Positions 37,842 through 56,492 of a stretch of DNA of 64,000 bases are shown one piece after another. The position numbers and the translations under genes were made by a program. The number at the start of each line of letters is the position of its first letter. The stretch's first letter is position 1. Location: IMG/VR virus record IMGVR_UViG_3300017722_005389; one strand, 5' to 3'. Source of the stretch: a virus (Duplodnaviria; Caudoviricetes). A model generated the notes under the pieces. The model had not been told where the DNA came from and ran no database searches. It saw only the letters and a program-made list of their open reading frames with translations.

Positions 37842-38260
37842 TCATTAAGGTCGTAAGTGCTATCATGTTCCATTTGTTTTATCAAATCATCCTTTATCTT
37901 TTTAATATCTGCTGAAGAAAGTGTTGGGAGTTCAGCAGTATCTTTATCATCATCCCTTTCTTTTACAGGTTTATTAAGAGACGTGACAACTTTCGAATGA
38001 ATGCTTATCAGCTTCACTTTTTTCTCAATAACATCGTTTAAAACCTTTCTACTTTCATTAATATACTTTGCAAGTTCCATCTCATCTTGGAAATCTTCTG
38101 GAGTATTTAAAGGCTTATTTTTTGCTTTTACTTTTGCATTCTGAGTTCTGTTATTCAAATCTTCAAGAATTGCTTTTTTCTGTTCATCGCAATCACGATA
38201 AACTTCTTTCATTGCATCGAATAGAGAATCAATGTCTAGTTTTAAATTTCTTTTTGCCAT
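37838..38260 (-). CDS. Hypothetical helical protein
   Basis: 140 aa; TATTTATA upstream (38274-38281). Confidence 0.65.
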   Translation of the reverse strand: MAKRNLKLDIDSLFDAMKEVYRDCDEQKKAILEDLNNRTQNAKVKAKNKPLNTPEDFQDEMELAKYINESRKVLNDVIEKKVKLISIHSKVVTSLNKPVKERDDDKDTAELPTLSSADIKKIKDDLIKQMEHDSTYDLNE

Positions 38261-38290: not shown

Positions 38291-39070
38291 TTATTTTTTT
38301 TTATAGAAATTTGGTAATGTGTTTTTTATAGCTGAATCATCGCAATTAAAATTCTTCTTCATTCGTTCTTGTTTTTTGATAAAATATAGTTTTTTAAATT
38401 TTTTGAGATTGGTACGTATGTTATCTGTATCTAATCCAGTTAGATTTCTCAAGCATTCTATTATTCTATTTTTTTCAAATTTTCTTCCGCCACCTGAATC
38501 AAAAAATAAAGCACTGTTTTTCATTATTTCAATAATACCATAACCAATCTTCAATTCATCCTCTTTAAAAATCCCAGAATTTTCATTTGAAACAATTATT
38601 TCTTCCAAAATATTTGAAAATTCTACAAAAAAATCTGATGTAAATGAATCGTATTCATCAATTTGATATGAAAATTTCTCGTCTTCTTCAATAGTAGTTG
38701 AAACTGTATCATAAGATTCTTTCCTGCTAATATTACGTCTTTCCTTTTTCTGTATAGCACTATTTCTATTTCTTATAATGGTTCCAAAGTAACTATACGC
38801 CCTTCCTTTGCCAGGTTCGTATTTTTCTATTTTGGTATGAAGAAAGCTTATCGTATCATTTAGCTGTTCATCAAAAGACATTTCTTTACATTGGAGATTG
38901 TATCTATTGATAATTGCTTCAGCCATTTTGATAAAAGGTTCTTTTAGATAAAATTCATAAAGAACCCTTCGCTCTTCTTCATCTGTAGATTTAAGATATT
39001 GCAATGTTGCAATTTCTTGGTCTTCGTCAAAATATTTTTCATTTTTTCTCTTCCTCCCTCGTTTTGCCAT
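38291..39070 (-). CDS. Late-transcription sigma-like factor (T4 gp55-like)
   Basis: YF...EIA..Y, KMAEAII, KIEKYEP.K.RAYSYFGTII, resembling the gp55 F.P.K..N.F.Y.T region. ORF track starts at 39082. Confidence 0.55.
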   Translation of the reverse strand: MAKRGRKRKNEKYFDEDQEIATLQYLKSTDEEERRVLYEFYLKEPFIKMAEAIINRYNLQCKEMSFDEQLNDTISFLHTKIEKYEPGKGRAYSYFGTIIRNRNSAIQKKERRNISRKESYDTVSTTIEEDEKFSYQIDEYDSFTSDFFVEFSNILEEIIVSNENSGIFKEDELKIGYGIIEIMKNSALFFDSGGGRKFEKNRIIECLRNLTGLDTDNIRTNLKKFKKLYFIKKQERMKKNFNCDDSAIKNTLPNFYKKK

Positions 39071-39074
39071 AAAA

Positions 39075-39851
39075 TTATACATAATTTATTTCACGGTCAT
39101 AATCAAAAAAGTATTCTTTTTTAGACATGTTGTACCAGAATTTTTTCTCAACCTCATCCATATCGCTTTGAAGATCGTGAATAGAGCCTGGTATACCGTT
39201 ATAATGTTTATATGTCATTTTAGGGATAACGTAAACCTTTTTTCCAAAATTTAGCAATCTCAAAAGAAATTCGAAATCTCCGAATTTCTTCATTGATGTT
39301 TTAAATTTGCCAACTGCTTTGAATGCCTCTAGTTTGATAGTGAGAGCATTAACATTGAAGTTATAAAGAGGTTTTTCTTTTGTTTTTTGCAAATCGAAAT
39401 ATCCAAATTTCTCCATATTTCCTGTTGCCCAAACACTTTCGTTTGAAAATCCAATCGGATTATCATTAGGATCCACTTCATAAATTAATGGAGTGAATGC
39501 ATCAACTTCTGGATAAGCCTGGATATACTTGTTGATATTCTCAATGTGATTTGGAAACATAATGTCATCCATTTGCAAAATTGAAAAATATGGGGTTAGA
39601 ATTACATCACAAGCAAAATTGATTTGTGAAGCATAATCATGCTTTCCACTATCATTAATCAATGTTACCATTCTAATGGCACGTGGAATTTCTTCAGAAA
39701 GTTTTTCGATTTCTTCGGAAATTTTAGGAGTAACAATTTGTACATAAAAATTAGGATCCTTTTGATTTTTTATAGATTCAATACATTGTACAAAGAATTC
39801 TCTATTGTTATCATTTATTTCATGAATTGGAATAATTACTGTTGTATTCAT
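39075..39851 (-). CDS. Glycosyltransferase, GT2 (GT-A)
   Basis: TVIIPIH, FSILQMDD, DFEFLLR. Confidence 0.75.
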   Translation of the reverse strand: MNTTVIIPIHEINDNNREFFVQCIESIKNQKDPNFYVQIVTPKISEEIEKLSEEIPRAIRMVTLINDSGKHDYASQINFACDVILTPYFSILQMDDIMFPNHIENINKYIQAYPEVDAFTPLIYEVDPNDNPIGFSNESVWATGNMEKFGYFDLQKTKEKPLYNFNVNALTIKLEAFKAVGKFKTSMKKFGDFEFLLRLLNFGKKVYVIPKMTYKHYNGIPGSIHDLQSDMDEVEKKFWYNMSKKEYFFDYDREINYV

Positions 39852-39853
39852 AT

Positions 39854-40930
39854 TTATTGTTCTTGTTTACTTTTAATTTCTTCTAATGTTTTCAATCTTT
39901 TTGCTACAAGGTTCTGAAATGTTTCAAGCGTTTGAGCTTCAAATTTTTCTTTTGAATAGTTATTAGCCGTATCAGCCATAACCTTATAAGTTTCTTGATT
40001 CAAGGTATCTGTGAACCATTCATCTAGGAATTTTGAAATATAATCTGGAATTGCAGAATAATTCAAAAGCCAAATACCGTTTTCTTTTATAGTGTATTTA
40101 CCATCGTCTTCTTTACCCATCCATTCTGGAACCATTTCAGGAATTTTTCCTATAACTGGAACACCGCATTTCATAGATTCAAGAGGGAATGTTCCGAAAG
40201 CTGAAATTTCATCCACCCAAACAGAAAGACAGCATTCGCTAAGATTGCTTGCAAATTGTTGTCTATCCATATTTGATGTCACCACAAATGGAACCCAAGC
40301 ATATTGAGGGTATTGAAGGTGAAATTGTTTTTCAAGTCTTTCGCCTCTGGATTTATCTCTTGTATAAAGGAAAATCTTTGGTGTTTGTGGTTTTTCAGAT
40401 GGTTTGAACTCATCATGAATATAAGGATTCACAACTGAAATATCCATGTTTCTCATGAAGTTTTCAATATGTTCCTTTTGAGCTTGTGTTGTGGTGATAA
40501 CATTTTTGATGCCGAAATTACTCCATCTTGCACCTGCACTCAAATTGAAGAAGATAAGGTCGTATACTTGAGAAATCACAACAGTTTCCCAAGGAAGTTT
40601 GATGTTATTCTGGCGCATATCTGTGAAAAAGGATTCAACCCAAACTTCTGGCAAGAAAAGAAAGTCAGAAGGTTTGACTGTAACTTTTTCAAAAGGAATA
40701 TGTGGAAGTTTGCTGTAGTTGCCACCCATCCATCCTGGAGTCATATATTCTTTGTCGTGAAGAATAAATGATTTGAATCCGAACTTTCTCAAAGATTCAA
40801 CCATATCGTAAATATATGATACAGCTCCACTCGTATTTCCTTTAGTATTTGGAACATAGAAGTAAAAAGAACCTTGATTTTCTTTTAATTCGTTGATAAA
40901 ATCTTCTAAAGTAAGTTGTTTATTTTCCAT
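39854..40930 (-). CDS. Glycosyltransferase, GT-B/GT4-like
   Basis: SGAVSYIY; WVDEISAFGTFPLESMKCGVPVIG (EX7E-like region). Confidence 0.7.
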   Translation of the reverse strand: MENKQLTLEDFINELKENQGSFYFYVPNTKGNTSGAVSYIYDMVESLRKFGFKSFILHDKEYMTPGWMGGNYSKLPHIPFEKVTVKPSDFLFLPEVWVESFFTDMRQNNIKLPWETVVISQVYDLIFFNLSAGARWSNFGIKNVITTTQAQKEHIENFMRNMDISVVNPYIHDEFKPSEKPQTPKIFLYTRDKSRGERLEKQFHLQYPQYAWVPFVVTSNMDRQQFASNLSECCLSVWVDEISAFGTFPLESMKCGVPVIGKIPEMVPEWMGKEDDGKYTIKENGIWLLNYSAIPDYISKFLDEWFTDTLNQETYKVMADTANNYSKEKFEAQTLETFQNLVAKRLKTLEEIKSKQEQ

Positions 40931-40939
40931 TGTATTATT

Positions 40940-41734
40940 TTAGTTAATCTGTTTTTTGAAGTAGTTGTTTATATCGTTAATAGAGTTAAATTCAAAAATT
41001 CTGTCACCTTTTATTTCTTTATTTTGTTCAGTGACAATTTTCAAGCAAATCTTTTTTTCAGGCTTTGTTTTGATAATGTAAGGGTCAGCTGTAATGATGA
41101 TGTCATACAGTTCCCAAATCTTTGAATAATCATAAAGGAATTTGATGTTGTTTCCTTTGAAATTATTTTGTGCGAGAAATAATAAAGTTGCAGGTTTGCT
41201 GTTTTCTCTTTCCTGGCTGACGATTGTGATTGTATAACCTTTTTTGGTTAAAGATGAATATAGCTCATCCAAATCAAACATTGCTTTTGAGTAAGTCAAT
41301 GGTGTTCTTGAGAAAATTTCAAATGCCTGGTCTTGATAAAGAAATTCAACAAATTCTTGATGGTCTTTGAATTTGAACATCTTTGTCAATCCAATCGGAT
41401 CCTCTGAATCTGAAATCTCAATAGAAGTTCTTTCAACTTCCAAAGAAACCTCTTCAGTTTCCCAAAGATCTACTGGTTTGTCTAATGAATTGTTTGTTAA
41501 ATCAAAAACCTTTAATGGCTCTATTTGCTTCACATTTGCCTCGTCAAGGATTTTCTTTTGCTCTTCTGTAAGAAGGTCTGAAGCAATAGGATTTTTTTCT
41601 TCTATTGAGTGATTTTCGAGGTCAGTATATTCTGTGAATTTTTCATTGATATCTCTTGTGTACATCTCATACGCAAAATCCACCGTTTCATAATGACCTC
41701 GAATAACCTCATTCAATGTAATACCTAATCTCAT
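40940..41734 (-). CDS. HAD-like 5'(3')-nucleotidase homologue with degenerate motif I
   Basis: RLGITLNEV in place of IDxDGV; ITIVS; DIIITADP. Confidence 0.5.
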   Translation of the reverse strand: MRLGITLNEVIRGHYETVDFAYEMYTRDINEKFTEYTDLENHSIEEKNPIASDLLTEEQKKILDEANVKQIEPLKVFDLTNNSLDKPVDLWETEEVSLEVERTSIEISDSEDPIGLTKMFKFKDHQEFVEFLYQDQAFEIFSRTPLTYSKAMFDLDELYSSLTKKGYTITIVSQERENSKPATLLFLAQNNFKGNNIKFLYDYSKIWELYDIIITADPYIIKTKPEKKICLKIVTEQNKEIKGDRIFEFNSINDINNYFKKQIN

Positions 41735-41791
41735 TATCTTTTTTATTGATAATATATAGGTTTCTTTGGTAAAGTAAAATTTATTTATTTA

Positions 41792-42433
41792 TTACAATAA
41801 ATTAGTGTTTTTTAATAGAACATCATCTTTATCTAAAAATAATATTTGCCAATTTTCTCCAAGTGATTTTTGTATATCATTTAAATTTGGTTGATTCTCA
41901 TATACTTCTTCATTAGAATATTCAGTATAAATATATTTGGTTCGATTTAAAGTTTCTTTTGCTCCTTCAAATACTAAATCTTCAGCTCCTTGAACATCCA
42001 TCCATATAAAATCTATAATTTTATTTTTTAAAAAATCAAAATCATCTAATCTAATGGTTTTTATTTTTATTTTTTCTGTAAATTTAACCCACTTATGTAT
42101 AGATAAATGTTTTTTAGGCTTTTTTAAAGAGTTACTTGCAGACCAAGGGTTATTCTTTAATAATTCAATTGGACTTTTACCTTTAAATTCCCCACTAGAT
42201 AGAAAAAAATCCGCTTCTCCATTTTTATTAGAAACAGCAAATTCAAATATTTCTGCAATATTTGTTACACCTGTGTCTTTCAATATCTTTATATTTCTCG
42301 GATCTGGTTCAAATCCGATAATTGTTGATTTTGGAGATATTTCTTTAAAAATTTTTGTATCTGTCCCAAAATGACAGCCGATTTCAACTATTAAATTGAA
42401 ATTATTCGATTTTATAAATTCATATATATTCAT
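41792..42433 (-). CDS. FkbM-family methyltransferase
   Basis: VEIGCHFG, FEPDPRN, WMDVQGAE. Start moved to give an ATGA overlap (ORF track 42466). Confidence 0.85.
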   Translation of the reverse strand: MNIYEFIKSNNFNLIVEIGCHFGTDTKIFKEISPKSTIIGFEPDPRNIKILKDTGVTNIAEIFEFAVSNKNGEADFFLSSGEFKGKSPIELLKNNPWSASNSLKKPKKHLSIHKWVKFTEKIKIKTIRLDDFDFLKNKIIDFIWMDVQGAEDLVFEGAKETLNRTKYIYTEYSNEEVYENQPNLNDIQKSLGENWQILFLDKDDVLLKNTNLL

Positions 42434-43164
42434 AATCTTTTCCAATTTTTTACTCCTAAATCCCATGATAAGTCACCTAAAAACCATGTTTTTGGATGTA
42501 TTATATTTTTTGATTTTGATAGCCATGCACCCCACCAGGCGAAACTACTATTTGATATAACAAAATTTTTACTATGTTGTAATAGTGCAAGTGTGTCCTT
42601 TTCGTTTAAATCTAGAAACACATATTCTTTTTTATTACTACTGAAATTTGAAATACACCAATTTAAATCATCAGAAATGAATATAACTTTATTTATATTT
42701 CCGAATTCATTTATAGCTTTATTATACCAATCCAAATCACAAACTAAAAAATTTTTGTTCTTTACGTAATCTGTTCTTCTAACTTGAACTACTAAATAAT
42801 CTTCCTGAATTTCAATAGTATTTTTTAAAAAGAATGTATTTCTTATTTCTTCAGAAATTTCTAAAAAATAATTTTCATTTTGAAAATATCCGCTAAAACT
42901 ATAATTAGTATTTTTATCTAAAAAATTATAAGGAAAATTTGAGTCATTTTCATATGACCCATAATATATTTTGTCTATACATTTTATATTTTTATCAAGC
43001 TTTTTTTCAGCAATATCAAAAATATCTAACATATATTTTCTAACTTTAGATGGTTTATATTCAAAAAATAATTCACAATTATATTTTTTTTCTAACATTT
43101 TACCAAATGCAAATTGAAACATTTGATTGCCCAAACCATCTGAAAGCATAATATTTATTTTCAT
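42430..43164 (-). CDS. Alpha-1,2-fucosyltransferase-like (GT11)
   Basis: GLGNQMFQ, GYFQNE, VRRTDY, NSSFAWWGAWL. Confidence 0.88.
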   Translation of the reverse strand: MKINIMLSDGLGNQMFQFAFGKMLEKKYNCELFFEYKPSKVRKYMLDIFDIAEKKLDKNIKCIDKIYYGSYENDSNFPYNFLDKNTNYSFSGYFQNENYFLEISEEIRNTFFLKNTIEIQEDYLVVQVRRTDYVKNKNFLVCDLDWYNKAINEFGNINKVIFISDDLNWCISNFSSNKKEYVFLDLNEKDTLALLQHSKNFVISNSSFAWWGAWLSKSKNIIHPKTWFLGDLSWDLGVKNWKRL

Positions 43165-43736
43165 TAAACTTTTTTAAAAATCATAATTGTATCTCTAAAC
43201 CATGTTGCATTAGTTGCACTATTTCTTAATTTAGTTGAAGCCTCAATTTCATAAGAATAACCTCTTTTTTGTAATTCTGAAACAACATAGTCATTATTTT
43301 GACAATTTACATGTCCACTTCCAGGTTGACCGATAATAGCCCAACTTAAAATAATTAAATTATTTGAATGATTGCAAATATTATTTATGAAAATTTGTTC
43401 ATATTCCTTTGGGATATGCTCACCTACTTCTAAACTCAATACACAATCAACCTTTTTACTTAAATTGAACTCTTTTGATAAATCAAGAACTTTTCCTATA
43501 CCATTTGTAAGCATTTCAGTATTTGGATTACCATCATATGCTTCACAAAAAATATTTTCTTTTATTATTGATTTTGCATAATCTCCCATACCACATCCAA
43601 AATCAATCAATGTTTTTACATTTTTTTCTTTCAAATAAGTAATTAAAGAATTGCATAAAGCAATATCATGTACATGTCCTATGCCTGAGTTTGTTTCCCA
43701 GAATCCGTTTTTATTTATTATAAAACTCTTTTTCAT
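43164..43736 (-). CDS. Class I SAM-dependent methyltransferase
   Basis: LIDFGCGMG, LSLEVGEHI, GHVNCQ. Confidence 0.82.
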   Translation of the reverse strand: MKKSFIINKNGFWETNSGIGHVHDIALCNSLITYLKEKNVKTLIDFGCGMGDYAKSIIKENIFCEAYDGNPNTEMLTNGIGKVLDLSKEFNLSKKVDCVLSLEVGEHIPKEYEQIFINNICNHSNNLIILSWAIIGQPGSGHVNCQNNDYVVSELQKRGYSYEIEASTKLRNSATNATWFRDTIMIFKKV

Positions 43737-43749
43737 TTATTTGTTATTT

Positions 43750-44460
43750 TTATTTATATATGATTTCACATTTATTTTTTAAATCGTTAAAAAGCTTTTT
43801 TATTTCATTCTCCTGTTTATTATAATGTACTCCCCATTTAAATTTTTTGTTCTCTTCAGATAGTCTACTATTAAATAGTTTATATCTATCTATTAGATAT
43901 TTTTCAGATAGGTATTTAAAATGAAATAATTTATAGCGTTCTTTAGAATACACTATTTTCCCTGAAGGAGCGCATTTGTGACATCCTGGCGAATAATTAA
44001 TTTCATTTATCTTTTTTTTATTAAATAGAACATTTTTATCATAATATTCAGTTCGAACTCCACTTTTGATGCTGTATAAATCTATAATATCATTATTATT
44101 TAAGTTTATCATATCATACCCTTCAAAATTTATTATAGTAGAATTTGAACGAATTTCATTTTTTAACATATTTTCATCTATGCTTACTAATTCATCGCAA
44201 TCACACACAAGCACCCAATCAGTATTCGAATTTTTCCAACAATTATTTTTTATTTCAAGATATTTTCCTTCAGAAATTTGGTTATTTGAATCGAAATATT
44301 CAATTTTGCAATTATTTTTTTTAGCGATTTCAACTGTTTTATCTGTGGAATAGTTATCGAATACTACGATTTCGCAGCCTGGAAATTTTTTTCTATAATG
44401 ATTAATAAAAAATTCAATCATTAATTCTTCATTATATGTAATAGTATAAATTGTTACCAT
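43750..44460 (-). CDS. Glycosyltransferase, GT2-like
   Basis: YNEELMI.FF..HY, VFDNYSTD, WVLVCDCDE. Confidence 0.8.
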   Translation of the reverse strand: MVTIYTITYNEELMIEFFINHYRKKFPGCEIVVFDNYSTDKTVEIAKKNNCKIEYFDSNNQISEGKYLEIKNNCWKNSNTDWVLVCDCDELVSIDENMLKNEIRSNSTIINFEGYDMINLNNNDIIDLYSIKSGVRTEYYDKNVLFNKKKINEINYSPGCHKCAPSGKIVYSKERYKLFHFKYLSEKYLIDRYKLFNSRLSEENKKFKWGVHYNKQENEIKKLFNDLKNKCEIIYK

Positions 44461-44473
44461 ATTTTTTGCTTTA

Positions 44474-45154
44474 TTAAATTCTTTCAGTAAGATGACTACA
44501 AGTAATTTTATTGATAACTATTCCTTTATTATTAGTGTTCTTCATAAAATCTGAAATTCTATTCCATAAATCTGCATCTGCAGGATAAATTTTACCTGTT
44601 TCTTCAAATACATCTCGATACCTCAAATTAGTTTTGGAGAAATTGATACAAGTCGCAGATCTAACTATATCTCCGCTTTTTGGATAAAATGGATTATTGA
44701 TATCTTTAGGAAGAACTTGATTATTTATATGATTAGACTTTGTTGTTATAAAAAAATAATCATTAACAAATTTAGAAATTTCTTCTAAGTGATTTGATTC
44801 CCACCAATCATCGTGATCTAAATGGCAAATATGGTAAATATTTTTCTTTAAACACAAATCAATACCATAATTTGTTGCATTAACTCCGCCTGAACACCAT
44901 AATTTTTTATCCCCCAAAGAATACTTATCTCTTTCTTTTGCATAAGGCAAATTAATCGAAAATATTTTTTCTTTAGGAATTATAGATTTAGAAATATTTA
45001 CAAATTCTTCGTTGTTATCATATTTATCTCCGATTAAAAATACTTTGTAATTAGTATAAGTTTGATTTTTTATACTATTTAATGATTTTTGTAAATATTT
45101 TATTGAATTCCCATCTTTTCTTTGATAAGTGGGTATTATTATACCTATAGTCAT
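44474..45154 (-). CDS. Glycosyltransferase, GT2
   Basis: IIIPTYQR, HLDHDDWW, ADADLW. Confidence 0.8.
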   Translation of the reverse strand: MTIGIIIPTYQRKDGNSIKYLQKSLNSIKNQTYTNYKVFLIGDKYDNNEEFVNISKSIIPKEKIFSINLPYAKERDKYSLGDKKLWCSGGVNATNYGIDLCLKKNIYHICHLDHDDWWESNHLEEISKFVNDYFFITTKSNHINNQVLPKDINNPFYPKSGDIVRSATCINFSKTNLRYRDVFEETGKIYPADADLWNRISDFMKNTNNKGIVINKITCSHLTERI

Positions 45155-45162
45155 TTTTAAAA

Positions 45163-45750
45163 TTATTTTATTTTTTTTGTTGGAGTTCCAATGTAAGTTC
45201 CAGATTCAGTTATATCTTTAATAACTCCTGAATTTAATCCAATAATAACATAATCACATATTTTAATTTTTTCTTTAGCTGTTGAATTTGTTCCTATATA
45301 TACATAATCACCAATGTTGCAATTTCCTGATACTACAACATTTGGCATTGCAGAAAAAAATTCACCTATTATTGTATCATGCCCAATATGATTTCCTCTA
45401 TTTAAAATGCAGTGTGCACCTATAGAAATATTAGTAGTTAATATACAATTTGCCCCTATAAAAGATCCCTTGCCAATTGTAATATTTTTATCAAATATTT
45501 GTGCTGATGGATGGATAAATGTAAAATATTGAGTCTCTTTTGGTAATTTGTCCACTATTTTTTTTCTAATTTCTGAATCACCTATTGCTACTAAAACTTC
45601 AAATTCATTTATATTGAATTGGCTTAGTGGTAATATTTTAGGATTATTATCTTTTATAAAAATATCATCTACAAAACATGTTAATTCTTCGCCTATTTGT
45701 GAGATTACTTCTTTTGCATGACCCCCATATCCGATTAATGCCTTTTTCAT
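45163..45750 (-). CDS. Sugar N/O-acetyltransferase (PglD/NeuD-like, hexapeptide repeats)
   Basis: IGYGGHAKEV, IHPSA, IGHD, left-handed beta-helix repeats. Confidence 0.85.
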   Translation of the reverse strand: MKKALIGYGGHAKEVISQIGEELTCFVDDIFIKDNNPKILPLSQFNINEFEVLVAIGDSEIRKKIVDKLPKETQYFTFIHPSAQIFDKNITIGKGSFIGANCILTTNISIGAHCILNRGNHIGHDTIIGEFFSAMPNVVVSGNCNIGDYVYIGTNSTAKEKIKICDYVIIGLNSGVIKDITESGTYIGTPTKKIK

Positions 45751-45754
45751 TTAA

Positions 45755-46477
45755 TTAAACTATTTTTATATATTTACATTCTTTTGTTATTTTCCATACT
45801 TTATTTATAATTGATTTTTTCCAAGTATAATATTTTTCACCCTCTCGATATAAATCCCAGGTTAAATGATAAGCAACATTTTTATTAGTATGAGCCCATT
45901 GTTTATTCAATTCTTTTACTTTTTTATATATGTTTATATCAAGATAATAAACACTCTTTATGTGGTCTAAATCAATACTTCTAAAAGTTAATAAGTTGTT
46001 GCCAGTATTTTTATATATTGGTTCGTATGGAAGATTTCTTAATTTACATTTTTCATTATAATTTTCAATTCCAATAATAGGATTAGGTAAAATATATAAA
46101 TTGTCTAGAAATAAATCTCCCGATGAAACCATTACATTTGGAAAATTTAAATTATGTAATATTTCTTCAAAAAAAGAATGTGAATTATATAAATATAAAT
46201 CCCCATCCGTAATTGTTATATATTCATATTCTTTTAATAAGGGAGTGAAATCTCTTAGAAAAATATTTATAGCATTTGCTGCAATATTTTCTTCAAATTG
46301 TATATAACCTTTTAATTTATTATTATTAGAAATGAAATATTGTTTTATTTCATTTGAACTTGAACTACTATTTTCTATAATAAAAAAATCTATACCATCA
46401 ATATATATTGATTCAAAAGATAATTTAATATGCTCAAAATTTTGAAAAGCGAAAAAAACACAGATATGTTTTTTCAT
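45755..46477 (-). CDS. Putative GT-A-fold protein
   Basis: FIIENSS, YITITDGDL (DxD), AYHLTWD; cluster context. Confidence 0.5.
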   Translation of the reverse strand: MKKHICVFFAFQNFEHIKLSFESIYIDGIDFFIIENSSSSSNEIKQYFISNNNKLKGYIQFEENIAANAINIFLRDFTPLLKEYEYITITDGDLYLYNSHSFFEEILHNLNFPNVMVSSGDLFLDNLYILPNPIIGIENYNEKCKLRNLPYEPIYKNTGNNLLTFRSIDLDHIKSVYYLDINIYKKVKELNKQWAHTNKNVAYHLTWDLYREGEKYYTWKKSIINKVWKITKECKYIKIV

Positions 46478-46483
46478 TATAAA

Positions 46484-47113
46484 TTATTTAGTATAAATTT
46501 CAAATTTAGATAAATCAGGATAAGGTAATTCTAAATCAGCATTTTCTTTTTTAGAACCATCTGTATTATAGAATTGATTCATAAGGAGCATTCCTCTAGT
46601 TGCTAATTCAGGCATCATATAAAAATTCCAACCTAGCATATCAAGATTGTCTTCATGGTAAGAACATTCATTCATTCCAGAGTATCTAGCTCTTTTAAAC
46701 CATTTATATGCATCTTCATTATCGGTTAAAATTGCTCCACCTTTACTCAATTTAAAATGTTTGTATGGACCTGTAAACGAAATACACATGTGCGTATTTG
46801 GTATATACATATCTGCAGTAAATCTTAATGCTGAATCCCATACATTTGTTGGTTGTAAGCAATATGCTCCTTTTAATGTTGTGCCTTCTACAGGAGCAAA
46901 ATTAACTTTTGCACCTGCATGTATTATTTCACAAGGAACACTTGGATAAGTTCTTGCAGGGATTGTTATTTCTAACCCTGAGACTTTCTCATACATTAAT
47001 GCTAAAAATAGTGCATTACTCTGATTGTCTACAGTTACGACATAAGGTGCATTAGTATATTTTGAAAGAGCATTTTCAAAATCTTCAGTTATTTTATATA
47101 TTCCGTTTGCCAT
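46484..47113 (-). CDS. DegT/DnrJ/EryC1/StrS sugar aminotransferase (short form)
   Basis: FE..LSKY, TYPSVP, WDSA, SFTGPYKH (PLP lysine), GGAILTD, GWNFYM. Confidence 0.82.
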   Translation of the reverse strand: MANGIYKITEDFENALSKYTNAPYVVTVDNQSNALFLALMYEKVSGLEITIPARTYPSVPCEIIHAGAKVNFAPVEGTTLKGAYCLQPTNVWDSALRFTADMYIPNTHMCISFTGPYKHFKLSKGGAILTDNEDAYKWFKRARYSGMNECSYHEDNLDMLGWNFYMMPELATRGMLLMNQFYNTDGSKKENADLELPYPDLSKFEIYTK

Positions 47114-47748
47114 TATTTATATTTACTTTTGAATTTTTGTATTTGTTCTGTAGTTAATTCATGCTTGTTAGACATAGTATTTAAAGTTTGGCTACCTAAA
47201 TGTAATACATTTGAAGTTGGAATGATGCAAGGTATGATTCCAATAGTTTCTAATTGTTTTATAGTAATATTGTCTGCGCACCAAAAAATGTATTCTTCAT
47301 TTAACCCTCCTATTTTATCATAAATAGAGCGTTTCATCATAAAACACCATCCTGAAAAATACTTACCTATTATATTCCCAAATTCAATCTTATTGATATT
47401 TGCTTGTCTCGCATCTTTAGGACATTTGGGACTCATTACGTCATATTGATATTTCATTAATTCTGTAAACCAATTTTTATGAAAAATTAAATCATTATTA
47501 CAAAATACAATCCATTCAGAATTACTTGTTCTTGCAGCTATATTCATAAATTTATTGTAATTAAATTGTTCAGAAATCTTAAGATTCCTTACTCCTTCAA
47601 AATCAGTTTTATTATCAACAACGCAAATATCAAAATCTAAATTCTCACTTTCTTTTAATGATTTTAGACAATTTTCAGTTACTTTTTTTAATTCAGGAGT
47701 TTTACTATCTGAAAGAATTATTATTTGAGCAATTTTTTTAGTTTCCAT
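47113..47748 (-). CDS. Glycosyltransferase, GT2
   Basis: FNYNKFMN, WIVFCNNDL, GWCFMM, VLHLGSQT. Confidence 0.8.
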   Translation of the reverse strand: METKKIAQIIILSDSKTPELKKVTENCLKSLKESENLDFDICVVDNKTDFEGVRNLKISEQFNYNKFMNIAARTSNSEWIVFCNNDLIFHKNWFTELMKYQYDVMSPKCPKDARQANINKIEFGNIIGKYFSGWCFMMKRSIYDKIGGLNEEYIFWCADNITIKQLETIGIIPCIIPTSNVLHLGSQTLNTMSNKHELTTEQIQKFKSKYK

Positions 47749-47762
47749 TTATTAAAATTATA

Positions 47763-49166
47763 TTATTTTCCCATCCAGGCACATACTTTTTTTCTATTTT
47801 TATGATGCTTTTTTAAATAATTTCTTGTTTCTCCTAAAGAAAGCTTTAAATCCAATGAAGAACCAATATCTATTAAAAATAAATCCTGTCTTTCTTTATG
47901 CATTTTATAAATACATATTTTTGTAAATGTCCCTGCCATAAATAAAAATACAGTATTTGGATTTAAAGTTTTACTATAATTAATAATATCGGCTATCATA
48001 TCATAATCATGATACCAAGCATTTACCCCAACTCTGAATTCTTTTAAAATATTATAATTATTATTTTTAAAATATGATGTATCTGCATTTTTATGGCATA
48101 CTAATACTATCTCTTTGTTTTTTATTGATTCTGGAAATTTAGATTCAAATATATCATAGTTTGAATTTACAAATAATGTTGCCCATGTAACATTTAAATC
48201 TGACTGTTCACTATAATTATACATTTTTTTAGATTTATCATTTCCTACACATGTTGGACATGGTAATCCTACATAATAATTATTAGATTTATATTTTATT
48301 GCCTCAGACATTTCATTTCTCAATTTTTGATATTTTGAATCATTGGGATCATACCTATGTTCTCCATTGAATTTTTTACTTAAATCTATAGGAGTATTTT
48401 CAATAATCATCATTTCTCCATCACCAAATCTTGTAAATGAAAATGGGATATTATTATTTATTTTATTTATAATTTTTGTTAAATCTTCCTTGAAATTTTT
48501 TTTACCATTATATTTTGTTTCTAAAAATGTATAGAATTTTTCCTTTAAATTTTTTAATTTTACATACTGGTCATTTCCATCATTTATGATTGTTAAATCA
48601 ATATTACATCCTATCAACTTATAAGAATGTTCATATTTTGCAAAATACGATAACCATAAATCTTCTATAAACGCATATTCTTTAGGTATATTATATAATC
48701 TTTCATCTAAAAATATCGAAGAATCTATTAACATTCCGCCTGTTCCACAATAATCGCATTCTGTAAGATTATTTATTCTAGTTCGATTATAATATGAACC
48801 ATTCATTTTCCAACCAAACCAAGAAATTATAGATTTAGGTTGATACATACTATTAAAGTCTTCTACAAATTTGTTATTGAAAATTTGATCATCATCAATA
48901 AAAATAATTTTAGAAAATTCATTAGCTATTTTTTTAGCATAAAGGAATCTGCCTATACCTCCAACATTAGTTTCAGAATTAATAACTTCAATTTTTAATT
49001 GAGGATAGTTTTTAATTATATTTTCAATAGTCTCCTTTTCTCCAAAATTGTTATTCCATATATGAAGCTTAACATTTTTATATGTTTGAGAGGATAAAAG
49101 ATTTAAGGTTTCTTTCAATCTTGAAACTCTTTTCCATGTACACATTACTATTGCTATAAAAGGCAT
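47763..49166 (-). CDS. Bifunctional glycosyltransferase: GT-A plus GT-D (DUF1792-like)
   Basis: IFIDDD and EDLWLS in the N-domain; FSFTRFGDGE and IDIGSSLD in the C-domain. Confidence 0.72.
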   Translation of the reverse strand: MPFIAIVMCTWKRVSRLKETLNLLSSQTYKNVKLHIWNNNFGEKETIENIIKNYPQLKIEVINSETNVGGIGRFLYAKKIANEFSKIIFIDDDQIFNNKFVEDFNSMYQPKSIISWFGWKMNGSYYNRTRINNLTECDYCGTGGMLIDSSIFLDERLYNIPKEYAFIEDLWLSYFAKYEHSYKLIGCNIDLTIINDGNDQYVKLKNLKEKFYTFLETKYNGKKNFKEDLTKIINKINNNIPFSFTRFGDGEMMIIENTPIDLSKKFNGEHRYDPNDSKYQKLRNEMSEAIKYKSNNYYVGLPCPTCVGNDKSKKMYNYSEQSDLNVTWATLFVNSNYDIFESKFPESIKNKEIVLVCHKNADTSYFKNNNYNILKEFRVGVNAWYHDYDMIADIINYSKTLNPNTVFLFMAGTFTKICIYKMHKERQDLFLIDIGSSLDLKLSLGETRNYLKKHHKNRKKVCAWMGK

Positions 49167-49195
49167 TTCTAATATTTTGGTATCTCTATATTTTT

Positions 49196-50863
49196 TTATT
49201 TCACCCGACTTAAATGCATTATCAATTTTTTTATATATTTTTGCGCTACTTTATGTTTTTCCGATTTATAAACTTTTTGAGTGCCTTCAGGTCTAACATC
49301 ATTATATATGTAATGCATTTTATTTATTTTATGAACTTGGTCGCTATAACACTGAGCTAAAATACCCATAGTTAAACATACGTCAGTGCAGAATTTATAC
49401 CATTCGCCTTTTTCATCTTTTAATATGTGTTCTGGGACTTTTTGGGCTACTCCAACTTTAAATGTTCTTAAAGGTGGACATGAAAATCCTTTTCCAGAAT
49501 AATCTACATTATTTATTGTTTCGTTTCCATATGTTCCAGCATTTAATATTTTTCCTGTGGAAACAAATTTAAAATTACCGAAGGTAATTAAACATTCTTT
49601 ATTTTTTAAATAATGATTTGATATATCTAAAAATGTATCATTTGTGACAGTATCATCTAAATCTATCATCAATGCGATTGCATCAGGATCTTTTAATTGT
49701 GAAATGATTAAATTTCTACTGTATGCAGCACCATAATTTTTATTATTTTGATAGATTTTTACTTTAGGATCATTGTTTGCAATTTGCTTTAAAATTTTAT
49801 ATGTTTTATCGTTAGAACCATCATCAAGCATGTGTATAGTGTAATCATAATTTCCAGGTATCTGATTATTTAAAGAATTATACGTATGCATCGCAAATTT
49901 TTCACAATTCCATCCAACTGAAACTATTTCAAGTTTTATTTTTTTGCCTTCAACAATATTAGGTACATAACTATTAATATTACTTCTGCTATTACTTTTA
50001 CTATTACTTTTACTATTACTTTTCAAATGATTCAAAACCGATACCCCATTAATTTCAGAAGAATTATTATGCACTTTATTAAGCATGTCAGTGTTAGCAC
50101 TAACATTAACATCATTCCTTTGACCGAGCCCAATTCCTCCTAAGCAAATTAATGCTTCCTTAATAATTCTTTTATCTACAGTTTTTGCCCATACTTTCTG
50201 AATAAACCTAAAATCTCCACATTTCCATCCATCCCATTTGATAGTTTTAGCAACACCTGAATGAACTGCAAAACATTGGGAACTGATTCTTGCCAATCTT
50301 GGAGGTTTTCCAAGTTCCTGTAAAGAAGGCAAAAGTCCTCCATTTGGATATTTCATCTGCCAAAGAAGCATATCCGTATTACTTCTGGCAATATTTGCCA
50401 CCTTTTGTAATACATTGTTGTCTGCAAGATAATCATCGTCATCTAATATTATGATCCATCCATCGTTTACTTTTTCGATAAGTTTGTTAAGATAGAGATT
50501 ATATATGAAACGTGGACCAGTCTTTGGATCTGGAATATCAGCTTCCTTAGAAATCACATTCTTATCCATAAAGAAATAATCCACACCACATTCCTTTACA
50601 TATTCTTCATCTTGTAAATTATCAATAGAAACAATATGTCTTACATTCTTATATGTTTGATTTTTTACAGATTCATGACATCTTTTGAAAGCTAAAGGTC
50701 TTCCAGATGTTCTTGTAAGAATATTTATCAGAGGTATAGGTATTTCAACTTTATTTATCACGATTTTTGCTTTTGATTGTACAGGTTTTATTGCACTTGG
50801 GGGTGTTTTTATGATGGTACCTTTATTACCATTTCTGGTTGTAAGTTTTTGAATATGTTTCAT
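49196..50863 (-). CDS. Tandem GT2-GT2 glycosyltransferase
   Basis: ILTRTSGRP..IILDDDD; second domain LDDGSND, YSRN, IDLDD, CTDV. Confidence 0.8.
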   Translation of the reverse strand: MKHIQKLTTRNGNKGTIIKTPPSAIKPVQSKAKIVINKVEIPIPLINILTRTSGRPLAFKRCHESVKNQTYKNVRHIVSIDNLQDEEYVKECGVDYFFMDKNVISKEADIPDPKTGPRFIYNLYLNKLIEKVNDGWIIILDDDDYLADNNVLQKVANIARSNTDMLLWQMKYPNGGLLPSLQELGKPPRLARISSQCFAVHSGVAKTIKWDGWKCGDFRFIQKVWAKTVDKRIIKEALICLGGIGLGQRNDVNVSANTDMLNKVHNNSSEINGVSVLNHLKSNSKSNSKSNSRSNINSYVPNIVEGKKIKLEIVSVGWNCEKFAMHTYNSLNNQIPGNYDYTIHMLDDGSNDKTYKILKQIANNDPKVKIYQNNKNYGAAYSRNLIISQLKDPDAIALMIDLDDTVTNDTFLDISNHYLKNKECLITFGNFKFVSTGKILNAGTYGNETINNVDYSGKGFSCPPLRTFKVGVAQKVPEHILKDEKGEWYKFCTDVCLTMGILAQCYSDQVHKINKMHYIYNDVRPEGTQKVYKSEKHKVAQKYIKKLIMHLSRVK

Positions 50864-52353
50864 CCTAACTGTACTATGAAGTTTTTAAGTTTCTTTTGGT
50901 ATTTTGAGAATTTAGGGGCAATAAGATTTATGGCTACTTTCTGTTCATTTCTTAATTTTTCAACGTCTTTTTTATCTGAAATTTCATTAGTAAAACAAGC
51001 AGCTTCTCCCACATAAATATTCTTATAATTCCTTAAAATACATTCTATACTCAAAAGAATGTCTTCATAACTTTCTTCAGGGCTTGTATCAAATCCTCCA
51101 ATCCCTATAAACAAAGCCTTTCTAATCATAAAAAAGTTTTTAGTATTGCCAAAAATATTTTCTTCTTTTTTGAAAGAGGCTCCAAAAACGGTTCTTATTC
51201 CTTGATTAGTGAATCCCATTCGGTTTTCTTTATTCATATAACAGACAATGCCTCCATGTTGGATTTTATTGTCTTTGAAATGTAATCTACACCCTACTGT
51301 TCCAATTTCTTTTTTATTCTTAAGACATTCGCTAACCATGATTGAAATTGCATCATTAATCATTTCAATACCACTATCGCAAAATAAAACTAATTCAGTT
51401 CCCTTGTCAATATAATTGAATACTATATCATTGTTAACACTTGCATAATGACTGTAATCATAATATAAAAGGTTAAGTTTTTTATCATAATACACATATT
51501 CTTCAATAGAAGCAATATTTTCTTCATTTGAACCTGTATCCGCAATATAAATCTGGTAATTTGAATAATTTGTCTTTTTAAGACTTTCAATACATTCCTT
51601 TAAACGTTCAAAATTGTCTTTAGAATGAATTATTATAGCTAAAGATGGTTCATTCTTAATATTAACATCTTTATTGCTTACAAAGGGAAATTGATTGATT
51701 TCTAAAGGAAGATTATCTTTATATTTTAGAGTGAATAATTCTCTACTTTTATTCCAATCTTCTGAAACCATTCCAATTGATTCATGTTTTATTTTAAAAT
51801 CGAAAATTACACCTATTTTAACTCCTTCAATTGAATTTCTAAGGCAAAAGGGTATGTCATAAAAATGGAATCCTTTAAATTCTTCATCAAAGTTTGATTT
51901 TATTCTTTCTTTATGAATCGCCATAAATAATCCATCGATACAAGCAACTTGATGTATTTTGCCAGAAGCTTTGTAACTGTAACTCATTTCAGTCCATTTT
52001 CCTTGCTTATCTCGGTGCGCAACTTCGCCTACCATCAAATGTCTTTTTCTCCACCACATTCCTGTTTCATCTATTTCAGTAGTTCCAGCCATTCCTAAAA
52101 TACCGAAATCTGATGAATTAAAATGGTCATAAATGATTTTATCCCAACCTTTTTCTAAATGGATGTCATCGTGAACACAGACTAATATTGGATATTTTGA
52201 TTGTTCAAGAGCAGTATTATATGCTTCCGAAAGAGAGTGTGTATTTTTGTTTACAAATTGTATAATTTCAACATCTGGTAATGTGCAAGTCTTCTGAAGA
52301 ACTTCTTTATATTCATTTGACTCCTCACGAGTTGAAAAGAAAATAGATATCAT
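50860..52353 (-). CDS. Two-domain GT2-like glycosyltransferase
   Basis: VCVHDD, IDGLF, FHFYD; second domain ADTGS, VGCRLHF, HGGI, EDILL. Confidence 0.8.
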   Translation of the reverse strand: MISIFFSTREESNEYKEVLQKTCTLPDVEIIQFVNKNTHSLSEAYNTALEQSKYPILVCVHDDIHLEKGWDKIIYDHFNSSDFGILGMAGTTEIDETGMWWRKRHLMVGEVAHRDKQGKWTEMSYSYKASGKIHQVACIDGLFMAIHKERIKSNFDEEFKGFHFYDIPFCLRNSIEGVKIGVIFDFKIKHESIGMVSEDWNKSRELFTLKYKDNLPLEINQFPFVSNKDVNIKNEPSLAIIIHSKDNFERLKECIESLKKTNYSNYQIYIADTGSNEENIASIEEYVYYDKKLNLLYYDYSHYASVNNDIVFNYIDKGTELVLFCDSGIEMINDAISIMVSECLKNKKEIGTVGCRLHFKDNKIQHGGIVCYMNKENRMGFTNQGIRTVFGASFKKEENIFGNTKNFFMIRKALFIGIGGFDTSPEESYEDILLSIECILRNYKNIYVGEAACFTNEISDKKDVEKLRNEQKVAINLIAPKFSKYQKKLKNFIVQLG

Positions 52354-52411
52354 TTTTAATTAATATAATTAATTTTCTTATGAAAATAAAAAAGGTCTCT
52401 GATGAGACCTT
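52352..52411. repeat. 60-bp direct repeat, copy 1 (terminator plus leader)
   Basis: ATTTTTAATTAATATAATTAATTTTCTTATGAAAATAAAAAAGGTCTCTGATGAGACCTT, identical to 53277-53336. Confidence 0.92.
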
Positions 52412-52435
52412 AAAATTTATAAATAATAAAAATTC

Positions 52436-53254
52436 TTAATTAATAATGTTTACGTTATCATTCCTCATTTCATTTCTTTCTAATATTGTAGATTCTAAAA
52501 CTTTATGAGGTGTAGAGTATTTTTGCATATATTTTAATAAGGCATTAGTATCTTTTGGAAAACATGCTCCTCCATAGCTTAATTTACCATCAGGACCAGG
52601 AATTTGAGTATGCATGGGATTTATCCAATTGTTTTTAAGCATTAAATTTTTGACTGTATCATAATCAACATTCATTGCGTTACATAATAGATATAGCTCA
52701 TTAAAAAATTGAACTTTTACTGCATAAAAACTATTAGCAAAAATTTTCATACTTTCAGATTCATTTGAAGTAACGATAGATAATTCAGCAGAAGGATAAT
52801 ATTTTAAATAAAAATTCGCTATTATGTCTATATCCGTATGACTACAATTTTTTCCATATCCTATCACAATATGAGATTGATTATGAAAATCATCGAAGGC
52901 TGTTCTTTGTGTTAAGAATTCTGGATTATGAAATATTTTTAAAGTTTTGAAATTATCTGAATAATATTCAGTTGACGTTGGTTCTACTGTACTTTTAATT
53001 ATAATTAATCCTGTATACTTATATTCTTCTAATTTTTCTAAAGTTTCAAAAATAGCTGATTTATCATATTCAGATATTTTTTCATTATATGGAGTTGGTA
53101 GAGCTAAAAATATAATATCAGAACTTAAACATTCATCAAAAGATCCGATATTTTTATATTTGTCATGAACTGTAATGTTGGGAATTTTATATTTAGTAAA
53201 ACTTTCTAACATTGCAGTTCCAACAAATCCTAAGCCTATTATAGAAATTTTCAT
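52436..53254 (-). CDS. ugd: UDP-glucose/GDP-mannose dehydrogenase family, short form
   Basis: IIGLGFVG, IIKST, NPEFL, K..AN...A, YGGACFPKD; no C-terminal UDP-binding domain. Confidence 0.85.
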   Translation of the reverse strand: MKISIIGLGFVGTAMLESFTKYKIPNITVHDKYKNIGSFDECLSSDIIFLALPTPYNEKISEYDKSAIFETLEKLEEYKYTGLIIIKSTVEPTSTEYYSDNFKTLKIFHNPEFLTQRTAFDDFHNQSHIVIGYGKNCSHTDIDIIANFYLKYYPSAELSIVTSNESESMKIFANSFYAVKVQFFNELYLLCNAMNVDYDTVKNLMLKNNWINPMHTQIPGPDGKLSYGGACFPKDTNALLKYMQKYSTPHKVLESTILERNEMRNDNVNIIN

Positions 53255-53276
53255 AAGTTATCTTATTATAAATGAT

Positions 53277-53336
53277 ATTTTTAATTAATATAATTAATTT
53301 TCTTATGAAAATAAAAAAGGTCTCTGATGAGACCTT
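53277..53336. repeat. 60-bp direct repeat, copy 2
   Basis: Identical to 52352-52411; contains hairpin GGTCTC-TGAT-GAGACC. Confidence 0.92.
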
Positions 53337-53348
53337 TTTGTTATAATC

Positions 53349-54326
53349 TTACATATTTAAAGCTTTATCACCTAATTCTATAATTTTATCCATAATTTCT
53401 TCAGCAAACAAGTTTGAAACTATTACCATACTTTTTTTGGATTCAAAATCAAACATATAATAGACAATTGTTCCTGTATCCCCTGCTCCCAATCCTCCGA
53501 CAGGATTTGTTTTGTTATCAAAAAAATGATACAATGTACTTCTTTTGATTATCTTATTAGTCAATAAAGCTCTTGAGAATTTATGTAAATCATTTATAGA
53601 GGTATATATTAGTCCTTTTGCAAAATAATTTGACCATTCATCAGCTCTAACAACTTCTTTTGTATTGTCTTTATAAAGATACCCAATCATATTCCACATG
53701 CTATAATCTTGAAAATCTACAGCTGCGCTGTTTGAACATCCTGCAGGTTCTAAAACTTCCTCTTTCAAAAGAACATCCCATTTTGTCTTTGTTATTAATT
53801 CTGCTATTGATAGCAAAATATAAAAATTGCTGTTACTGTAAGATTCATCAGAACCTGGATTAAAATGAAGTGGATATTTTCCCAAAGCTCTTAATATATC
53901 CACCCAATTGAAGTTTTGCGGTGCGTTATCATTATAATACGCAAAATCTGGTATTTCATTAAGAAAATCAGGTATACCACTTTTATGCTTCAAACAATCT
54001 TCTATTGTAATTTCAGCCCATTTATTCCAATCATAAAAATTGATAATATTTTTGCCATTTCTAACAGGATCAATCCATTTAAAAATTTTATCTTTCAAAT
54101 TCATAGCACCTGATTCTATCAATTTCAATATCAAAATTTTTACATGTAATTTGCTTACACTTTGGGCAAAAAATGGGGTATCATTTGAAATGTCTCCTTC
54201 TTTAAAGGAGAACAAATATTTTCCTTTTGAAAGGTCATCGTTATACTGAACTAAACTTAAACTTAAACTTGGAATAGAATACTCTCTTTTGAAATTTGAT
54301 AATTCAGTTTTGAAATTTTGTGGCAT
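53349..54326 (-). CDS. Serine hydrolase, beta-lactamase/PBP-like family
   Basis: AQSVSK (SxxK), LKHKSG, YSNSNF (YxN); TATTTATA upstream. Confidence 0.8.
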   Translation of the reverse strand: MPQNFKTELSNFKREYSIPSLSLSLVQYNDDLSKGKYLFSFKEGDISNDTPFFAQSVSKLHVKILILKLIESGAMNLKDKIFKWIDPVRNGKNIINFYDWNKWAEITIEDCLKHKSGIPDFLNEIPDFAYYNDNAPQNFNWVDILRALGKYPLHFNPGSDESYSNSNFYILLSIAELITKTKWDVLLKEEVLEPAGCSNSAAVDFQDYSMWNMIGYLYKDNTKEVVRADEWSNYFAKGLIYTSINDLHKFSRALLTNKIIKRSTLYHFFDNKTNPVGGLGAGDTGTIVYYMFDFESKKSMVIVSNLFAEEIMDKIIELGDKALNM

Positions 54327-54371
54327 TCTTTTTATATAAATATTCTTTTGTAAAACAAAAAAAAAATCTAC

Positions 54372-56486: not shown

Positions 56487-56492
56487 AATTTA

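Follow-up and report, generated by a model that had tools for sequence, protein, structure and literature searches.

The 64,000-nucleotide stretch of DNA analysed here (the window), from the virus record IMGVR_UViG_3300017722_005389 of IMG/VR (Duplodnaviria; Caudoviricetes), carries between positions 39075 and 53254 an island of exactly 16 open reading frames (ORFs) on the minus strand, which overlap or are spaced by at most 82 nucleotides (nt) and are predicted to form a functional, phage-borne glycan-assembly locus of soluble enzymes (Table 1). An earlier reading of this DNA from its letters alone, here called the sequence-only reading, had described 16 tightly packed co-oriented genes with about 13 glycosyltransferase (GT) domains, and both counts stand: 11 domains of GT-A type are detected with Pfam and NCBIfam, three of the proteins so detected having two GT domains, and a GT-B enzyme assigned by modelling and a GT2-like protein assigned by Atlas features and structure bring the total to 13. 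Hydropathy shows no transmembrane-like segment in any island protein and no polytopic membrane protein among the window ORFs of at least 80 amino acids, in agreement with the earlier statement that export machinery is missing from the window; none was found in the 184-kb and 125-kb relatives either. Since no island GT comes near an NCBIfam equivalog cut-off, linkage and donor sugar are not assignable from sequence.

The accompanying enzymes named by the sequence-only reading fared unevenly. One methyltransferase, of the FkbM family, is firm; the acetyltransferase scores just above its cut-off and the second methyltransferase falls below its own. The aminotransferase (DegT-like) and the nucleotide-sugar dehydrogenase belong to the families proposed, but both are short virus-specific forms, and the dehydrogenase gene is a single-gene accessory insert. 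The further GT4 reported at 57117 is present, and the soluble enzyme set as a whole would be able to build the branched, fucosylated and methylated glycan that had been envisaged.

Table 1 Features of the glycan-assembly island and of the remainder of the window
Feature	Position	Strand	Length (amino acids)	Remarks
Short UDP-sugar dehydrogenase	52436-53254	-	272	Pfam, NCBIfam and PDB alignments
Head gene, PF13712 Glyco_tranf_2_5 + GT2	50860-52353	-	497	Pfam; conserved
Double GT-A protein	49196-50863	-	555	Near-identity to close relatives ends inside, at 50108
GT2 + GT-D protein	47763-49166	-	467	Pfam/NCBIfam
GT2	47113-47748	-		Pfam/NCBIfam
Short DegT-like protein	46484-47113	-	209	
GT2-like protein	45755-46477	-	240	No Pfam annotation; Atlas features and structure
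NeuD/PglB/VioB-family (NeuD/PglD) acetyltransferase	45163-45750	-		161 bits, just above cut-off
GT2	44474-45154	-		
GT2	43750-44460	-		
Second methyltransferase, weak	43164-43736	-		25.2 bits against a cut-off of 27
GT11	42430-43164	-		
FkbM methyltransferase	41792-42466	-		Firm assignment
HAD-like protein (fold tentative)	40940-41734	-	264	Conserved; own promoter-like element
Compact GT-B (GT4-like)	39854-40930	-	358	Below Pfam cut-off; fold from model
Conserved GT2	39075-39851	-	258	8-nt overlap with next gene
gp55-like late sigma factor	38291-39082	-	263	Last gene of right-arm transcription unit
Swappable cassette, 8.3 kb	41782-50107	-		blastn breakpoints, L001 and L012-L017
69-bp direct repeat, copy 1	53268-53336	-		Intrinsic-terminator hairpin and AT-rich promoter-like stretch
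69-bp direct repeat, copy 2	52343-52411	-		Hairpin 52392-52411; promoter-like stretch abuts head gene start
Second conserved GT-B (GT4)	57117-58274	-	385	Outside island, within conserved neighbourhood
Beta-lactamase/penicillin-binding-protein-fold serine hydrolase	53349-54326	-	325	Accessory; own TATTTATA at 54335-54342
dUTPase	56568-57050			Adjoins GT-B gene 57117-58274
Asn-rich repeat fibre-like gene	27423-30095	-		Paralog of next; upstream TATTTATA
Asn-rich repeat fibre-like gene	30438-32342	-		Paralog of previous; upstream TATTTATA
Gp23-type major capsid protein	22901-24724		607	
Prohead protease	20841-21608			
gp20-type portal, intein-interrupted	16459-19605		1048	
Large terminase	14655-16424			
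ClpB/ClpA-like ATPase				Encoded in window

Synteny across relatives, proposed earlier as a check, shows conserved arms and an exchanged middle. The PF13712+GT2 head gene, the double GT-A gene and a GT2 gene make up the arm on one side, and the HAD-like, GT-B, GT2 and gp55-like sigma genes that on the other; an 8.3-kb middle is exchanged between otherwise near-identical phages. Identity to the window is lost at position 41781 in six metagenomic contigs (L012-L017) and at 50108 in two (L001 and L012), and at least four versions of this cassette are found on backbones that are 92-98% identical. The cassette starts within the 555-amino-acid double GT, whose C-terminal half it includes, and ends after the FkbM gene; with a G+C fraction of 0.21-0.27 it is the G+C-poorest part of the window, the arms having 0.29-0.34.

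The contents of the exchanged segment differ widely. Contig L001, whose identity to the window amounts to 97.7% over 53268-63279 and to 96.6% over 50108-52411, has in its place a diverged double GT, GT2, GT25 and another GT2, a full-length GDP-mannose 4,6-dehydratase (Gmd), a GT10-like protein, a short DegT (94% identical to ours), an unnamed protein and a PglD-like protein. Between 50108 and 41781, L012, a 275-kb JGI metagenome contig that is 92-98% identical to the window across shared parts, carries two GT2 genes, a polysaccharide pyruvyl transferase, a methyltransferase and a TOD1/MUCI70-like protein, and L013-L017 have a UDP-GlcNAc 2-epimerase beyond the 41781 breakpoint.

Uncultured T4-like jumbo phages of a large clade share these arms. 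At 40-75% protein identity, L004, L006/L022 and L009 keep the order dUTPase, head GT, double GT, GT2, two to ten variable genes, HAD-like, GT-B, GT2, sigma and virion-type genes, the smallest variable slot being that of L006/L022, with two methyltransferases only. Every GT2 match in three viral records of relatives lies inside the island. The trio of GT-B, GT2 and sigma-like genes recurs in L018 and L019, contigs of 158-236 kb with PolB and Gp23, and L105 shows the order dUTPase, head GT, cassette, PhoH, HAD-like, GT-B and GT2, the first part of which is also found in L104. The cassettes of these two distant jumbo phages (L104 10001-21587 and L105 10001-21599) combine GT25, GT11, GT10 and FkbM. 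GT25, GT11 and GT10 are the trio that Helicobacter uses for Lewis-type epitopes. The L104 cassette adds transketolase-like halves and two epimerase/dehydratase genes.

Single genes come and go at the dUTPase-side end of the island. L001 and L012 lack the short dehydrogenase gene, and the beta-lactamase-fold gene is present in L001 and L009 and absent from L012, L004 and L006. L001 and L012 each have one copy of the 69-bp repeat ahead of the head gene, aligning to both sites in the window. Because in the window this repeat brackets a gene that close relatives lack, gain and loss of genes by recombination between intergenic modules is suggested.

Two classes of putative promoter can be told apart. 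The element TATTTATA occurs 45 times in the window against an expectation of 15.7 ± 3.6; 14 of these copies, oriented with the gene and often just downstream of a terminator hairpin, are found 8-17 nt ahead of the start codon of a virion-type gene (for example 14637-14644, 20820-20827, 30107-30114 and 54335-54342). The genes so preceded include those for terminase, prohead protease, both fibres, the ClpB-like and beta-lactamase-fold proteins, 37838-38260 and the gene preceding the capsid gene. Upstream of each of three other genes (the head gene, the HAD-like gene and the GT-B gene lying outside the island at 57117) stands a hairpin terminator, followed by a T-run and, 10-15 nt from the ATG, a TATATTA-like element, an arrangement that recurs in relatives sharing little intergenic sequence, including before the head gene in L004 and L006. 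By these signals the island is predicted to comprise two transcription units, the second ending with the gp55-like sigma gene. A late sigma factor is needed before late genes can be transcribed; we therefore infer that the TATATTA-class promoters, and hence the island, are active earlier than the virion genes. The sigma assignment itself draws on Sigma70_r2 in six of seven homologs (best E 7.8e-6) and on the family profile, whose best PDB match is T4 gp55 (7d7c_F, E 0.021).

Island genes are under purifying selection: against close relatives, the ratio of nonsynonymous to synonymous substitution rates (dN/dS) is 0.02-0.08 for the head GT, 0.03-0.05 for the GT-B, 0.02-0.03 for the GT2 at 39075-39851 and 0.10 for the short DegT. 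At these values the genes tested are working genes, not debris. The head GT has at least 1082 full-length homologs, almost all of them unnamed metagenomic proteins, and is 99.6% identical in L001 and 59% in L004 at the amino acid level; among deposited phages it finds only weak matches to unrelated phage fragments, and megablast of the island against them gives no match. The GT2 at 39075-39851 is 53-66% identical in L004, L006 and L009 and is paired with GT-B in L018, L019 and L105. The second GT-B (57117-58274) is 66% identical in L004 and is also present in L022.

The compact GT-B (39854-40930) is the most conserved island protein, with 1155 homologs, again almost all unnamed and metagenomic, and no tblastn match among 50,697 deposited phage records. 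Its model has a predicted local distance difference test score (pLDDT) of 90.5 and closely resembles AmGGT (PDB 8xsg; Foldseek E 3.5e-16; VIA Z 31.1, root-mean-square deviation 2.8 Å over 317 residues at 16-17% identity); the entry after 8xsg scores Z 23.4, and SdgB and GtfA, which are protein O-GlcNAc transferases, are among the other matches. A fold search of BFVD returned generic GT-B matches only, with a TM-score of about 0.5-0.6. AmGGT acts as a processive glucosyltransferase and has relatives in the Agt enzymes, by which the glucose of N-glucosylated peptides is extended (PMC12159676). With the N-glycosyltransferase (NGT)-dependent cytoplasmic N-glycosylation system of Actinobacillus the GT-B shares the compact fold and size of Agt/AmGGT, a likeness of structure only; no GT41 partner as in that system was found in three relatives or among the window ORFs scanned.

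The HAD-like protein has 23 homologs, all unnamed, and a variable cap insertion. Its fold assignment is tentative (model pLDDT 81.5; weak Foldseek matches to deoxyribonucleotidase-like HAD proteins, best E 1.7e-3), and since the motif I DxD reads T-L-N, its aspartates being replaced by Thr and Asn in 18 of 18 aligned sequences, the protein is probably not a phosphatase. In the short DegT the Schiff-base lysine motif is kept and about 50 internal residues and the C-terminal domain are missing; the short dehydrogenase keeps the GxGxxG NAD motif and catalytic Cys and lacks the UDP-binding C-terminal domain. Both fall into virus-dominated Atlas clusters of the same short lengths (about 200 and 270 amino acids), as the 240-amino-acid GT2-like protein falls into a virus-dominated cluster. 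Decay was considered for the two short proteins and rejected, given 47% identity of the DegT over its full length to the form in a distant phage, the virus-specific clusters and the dN/dS of 0.10. The GT-D domain weakly matches the SP_1767 accessory-Sec glycosyltransferase family and changes its fusion partners, being part of a 467-amino-acid protein here, separate in L004 and within a 772-amino-acid protein in L009. The Gmd of L001 gives no host signal, since among the best 80 bacterial and archaeal matches kept it is at most 57% identical to any, the best cellular matches (49-57%) being spread over many phyla. Such comparisons point to a viral gene pool as the source of the enzymes, not to recent capture from a host. 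The accessory beta-lactamase-fold protein (Pfam Beta-lactamase E 1e-25) is AmpH/PBP4B-like but far below the NCBIfam cut-offs, and is a candidate peptidoglycan peptidase or esterase.

The phage itself belongs among the T4-like viruses by its core genes in the window (Gp23 capsid, gp20 portal, large terminase and S77 prohead protease) and, as no deposited phage has a capsid protein more than 38% identical to its own, is a distant member of them. The nearest deposited capsid proteins are those of Microcystis phage Mel-JY01, Flavobacterium phage immuto and uncultured huge phages. The window, with a G+C content of 27-35%, is devoid of tRNA genes. In the capsid protein the best-matching Gp23 and PHROG segments are confined to residues ~350-590, and tblastn aligns it to other phages in two separate blocks, which points to a long extra N-terminal or inserted region. 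The portal intein carries an HNH endonuclease, with Intein_splicing at residues 158-540 and the Portal_T4 match from residue 571. A T5orf172/MUG113 (GIY-YIG-like) gene at 58317-58889 lies on the opposite strand within a long minus-strand run and has a homolog at the same site in L022, and 10444-11445 encodes a 333-amino-acid protein with a nucleotidyltransferase domain and a C-terminal Psq/I-TevI-like DNA-binding helix-turn-helix.

The island lies between the dUTPase/GMP-reductase-like genes and the gp55-like sigma gene. Its description as standing beside the structural genes is half right, for virion-type genes flank it on one side only and nucleotide-metabolism genes on the other. The two fibre-like paralogs, 50% identical at both ends and rich in short Asn-rich repeats, are part of the virion-type side, and at 93-98% identity elsewhere L012 has a 393-amino-acid protein (L012 19360-20541) in place of the 634-amino-acid fibre-like protein, the two sharing their first 37 residues only. 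Fibre-like late genes thus adjoin the island and, like the cassette, vary between close relatives. An excess of N-x-S/T in the fibres was considered as a sign of an acceptor and rejected, as it merely mirrors the Asn-rich repeats.

The layout of the locus as a whole suggests that the inner part of the glycan is conserved and that the outer part differs from strain to strain. The conserved enzymes, with about seven GT domains, would build an inner oligosaccharide from host nucleotide sugars, and the cassette enzymes would add strain-specific outer residues and decorations, in the phage studied here fucose (GT11), an N-acetylated amino sugar (short DegT and NeuD/PglD acetyltransferase), O-methyl groups (FkbM) and further hexoses. 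Cassettes would be swapped by homologous recombination within the arms. The acceptor would be a phage-made capsid or fibre protein assembled in the cytoplasm, giving virions a variable glycan coat on a conserved core. We favour a phage protein, and hence the virion, as the target, with somewhat less than even confidence, because the pathway looks self-contained, the gene pool is apparently viral, the best fold match lengthens, in the cytoplasm, glycans carried by peptides or oligosaccharides and variable fibre genes adjoin the island. That virions throughout a very large, uncultured clade of T4-like jumbo phages bear a glycan coat of the phages' own making, its core built by the arms and its outer part encoded by the cassette, is a more tentative proposal still.

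Several observations weigh against a glycan on phage proteins. No copy of TATTTATA precedes the island genes from 52353 to 38291, which leaves the island without the virion-type promoter, and across the clade the site of the island is the dUTPase/PolB/PhoH region, not within the structural operon. No acceptor was recognised, and no Ser/Thr-rich, mucin-like tract is present: no window protein exceeds 12 Ser/Thr per 30 residues, and the capsid protein reaches at most 9. The initiating N-glycosyltransferase GT41 (PF13844) is absent from three relatives (G001-G003, covering 68%, 46% and 18% of a genome; two of the relatives amount to 184 kb and 125 kb) and from the window ORFs scanned. GT10, GT11 and GT25 are classically enzymes of lipid-linked lipopolysaccharide (LPS) and lipooligosaccharide synthesis, and soluble GTs would be compatible with a lipid-linked acceptor provided by the host. 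The last point also undoes an argument of the sequence-only reading, which had concluded from the missing exporters that the target is probably cytoplasmic; absent exporters do not imply this, because the peripheral GTs of O-antigen and capsule synthesis are soluble too and the host may supply carrier, flippase and ligase.

The same enzymes might accordingly remodel the host envelope, the soluble GTs modifying undecaprenyl-linked LPS, capsule or O-glycan intermediates of the host at the inner membrane face and host enzymes exporting the product, with an altered surface that could, for example, block superinfection or the adsorption of progeny to lysing cells. Both the modification and such an effect seem to us unlikely, yet they deserve serious weight. 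GT10, GT11, GT25, UDP-GlcNAc 2-epimerase, pyruvyl transferase and Gmd are typical O-antigen or capsule enzymes, the non-late promoter class would suit an early function, and in the one comparable pair the cassette and the neighbouring fibre gene both differ, as a link to host-surface type would have it; remodelling of this kind is also the explanation offered for analogous islands of pelagimyophages and cyanomyophages (PMC7029224, PMC12801897). It is opposed by the lack of any initiating transferase, flippase, polymerase or ligase in the window or the partial relatives. As to initiation, no phosphoglycosyl transferase is present among the window ORFs scanned and PF02397 is absent from G001-G003, PF00953 not having been searched for. 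Moreover, a core of about seven GT domains shared across phages that are 40-60% identical would require one conserved host acceptor, the enzymes fall into virus-specific clusters and not host-like gene pools, and no sign of a temperate lifestyle is seen in the window.

Alternatively, the locus may house two systems, the clade-wide GT-B and GT2 with the degenerate HAD-like protein having a target of their own (possibly DNA, or one phage or host protein) and the head gene and cassette being separate. The HAD-like/GT-B/GT2/sigma unit does have its own terminator and promoter-like element, stands without an adjacent island in L018 and is separated from the island by PhoH in L105 and L019. In T4, moreover, the gene for the DNA alpha-glucosyltransferase lies 1.8 kb downstream of gene 55, and a HAD-type phosphatase is found together with GT-B enzymes in the clusters for DNA arabinosylation of RB69 and DLP3 (PMC13326640). 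The HAD-like protein of the island, in contrast, lacks the catalytic aspartates, and its GT-B shows no profile relation to the T4 alpha-glucosyltransferase (hhalign probability 0.3%), no T4 enzyme being among the 50 best matches listed in its fold searches; the enzyme closest to it in fold extends glucans or glycopeptides and is not a DNA GT. No ThyA-family gene (PF00303) was found in G001-G003, including the relatives that cover 68% and 46% of a genome; a search of the relatives with PF12851 (TET/JBP) was silent, but so was its control. We regard two systems as improbable, and a DNA target may be retained for the conserved GT-B/GT2 pair.

Hypermodification of DNA by the whole island, the other target that the sequence-only reading had considered, in which a long glycan on a hydroxylated pyrimidine would block host nucleases, is very improbable: phage GTs of both folds do place mono- to tri-saccharides on DNA (PMC13326640; bioRxiv 10.1101/2023.12.21.572611), the island adjoins dUTPase and other nucleotide-metabolism genes, and strain diversity would be expected from a restriction arms race as well, but 13 GT domains with methyl, acetyl and, in relatives, pyruvyl transferases are far in excess of what is known of DNA glycans, the 64-kb window shows no gene of ThyA-like, TET-like, dCTPase or dNMP-kinase type although such pathways are normally clustered (10.1101/2023.12.21.572611), and a bulky branched glycan on a common base would be hard to square with DNA packaging.

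The closest known counterparts are the GT-rich, non-syntenic islands beside fibre genes of pelagimyophages and cyanomyophages, whose function is untested (PMC7029224, PMC12801897). Like those of the pelagimyophages and of the cyanomyophages S-SCSM2R, S-SCSM1 and P-SSM2, the present island sits in a T4-like backbone, varies between relatives, has fibre genes adjacent, and combines many small soluble GTs (GT2, GT10, GT11, GT25) with nucleotide-sugar enzymes, UDP-glucose dehydrogenase included; GT25, GT11 and GT10 are also listed for S-SCSM2R (PMC12801897). It differs in belonging to a separate freshwater lineage with genomes of about 270 kb, in which arms and one cassette with fixed breakpoints are resolved here, and in its site: in pelagimyophages the island lies between VrlC and the neck gene gp14, here between dUTPase and the late sigma gene, and no homolog of VrlC or gp14 was recognised in the window. 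The moraphages, freshwater jumbo phages predicted to infect Bacteroidota, have four GT orthogroups in their near-core genome and genomic islands (PMC12619734). Our phage resembles them as a large aquatic phage with T4-type structural genes, a ClpA-like ATPase, dUTPase, a sigma factor and PhoH; the moraphage paper lists GTs, their arrangement and variability not being analysed there (PMC12619734).

For a glycan on virions the nearest parallel is offered by chloroviruses, in which virus-encoded soluble multi-domain GTs (A064R, A111/114R) and methyltransferases likewise occur and the glycans comprise a conserved core and strain-specific decoration, including fucose and methylated sugars, made independently of lipid carrier and export (PMC7826918, PMC9614988). 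The chlorovirus host is eukaryotic, however, and the acceptor is the major capsid protein, whereas core and periphery are proposed here from gene conservation only. Mycobacteriophages, in the account of Freeman et al. (2023) as cited in PMC12619734, use phage GTs, sometimes with methyltransferases, to modify structural proteins made in the cytoplasm; by the same account their two to four GT genes belong to the structural operon, and capsid and tail-tube proteins serve as acceptors through their C-terminal tails. In our island the GT domains number 13 and the promoters are of another class; tails of that kind are not seen in the window, where no tail-tube protein was identified. To judge from these accounts, mycobacteriophages (cited in PMC12619734) and giant viruses (PMC7826918, PMC9614988) are the only viruses for which glycosylation of the virion is established. 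Unlike Wzx/Wzy- or ABC-dependent O-antigen and capsule loci, the window has no polytopic flippase, polymerase, ligase or permease; unlike the Gtr seroconversion clusters of temperate phages, it has no GtrA, GtrB or Gtr(type) membrane proteins; and unlike the DNA-modification clusters of T4 (a-gt/b-gt), RB69/DLP3 and 5mYOX-GT, it has no ThyA-family or TET-like gene among the ORFs scanned.

What is new here is the architecture of arms and cassette with base-exact breakpoints, the apparent link to a late sigma factor and a second promoter class, the clade-wide conservation of the arms and the short virus-specific enzymes, of which the DegT-like and UDP-sugar-dehydrogenase-like viral families are of enzymological interest in themselves. 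The role of GT genes in aquatic myophages has been open since the first cyanophage genomes, and the locus provides a well-defined test case, in which the conserved enzyme set is small and represented by more than 1000 proteins from metagenomes, the cassette alone distinguishes natural "isogenic" phages, and fibres and capsid, as candidate acceptors, are encoded close by. Should the glycan lie on the host surface or on DNA, the island would be an unusually elaborate exclusion or anti-restriction device. With a virion coat, the island would be to phages what an O-antigen locus is to bacteria or capsid glycans are to chloroviruses, and phages of Gram-negative hosts would have their first complex virion glycan; the particles would then bear variable surface antigens as bacteria do, which would affect how they adsorb, aggregate and are grazed, and how viral "auxiliary metabolic genes" are to be interpreted.

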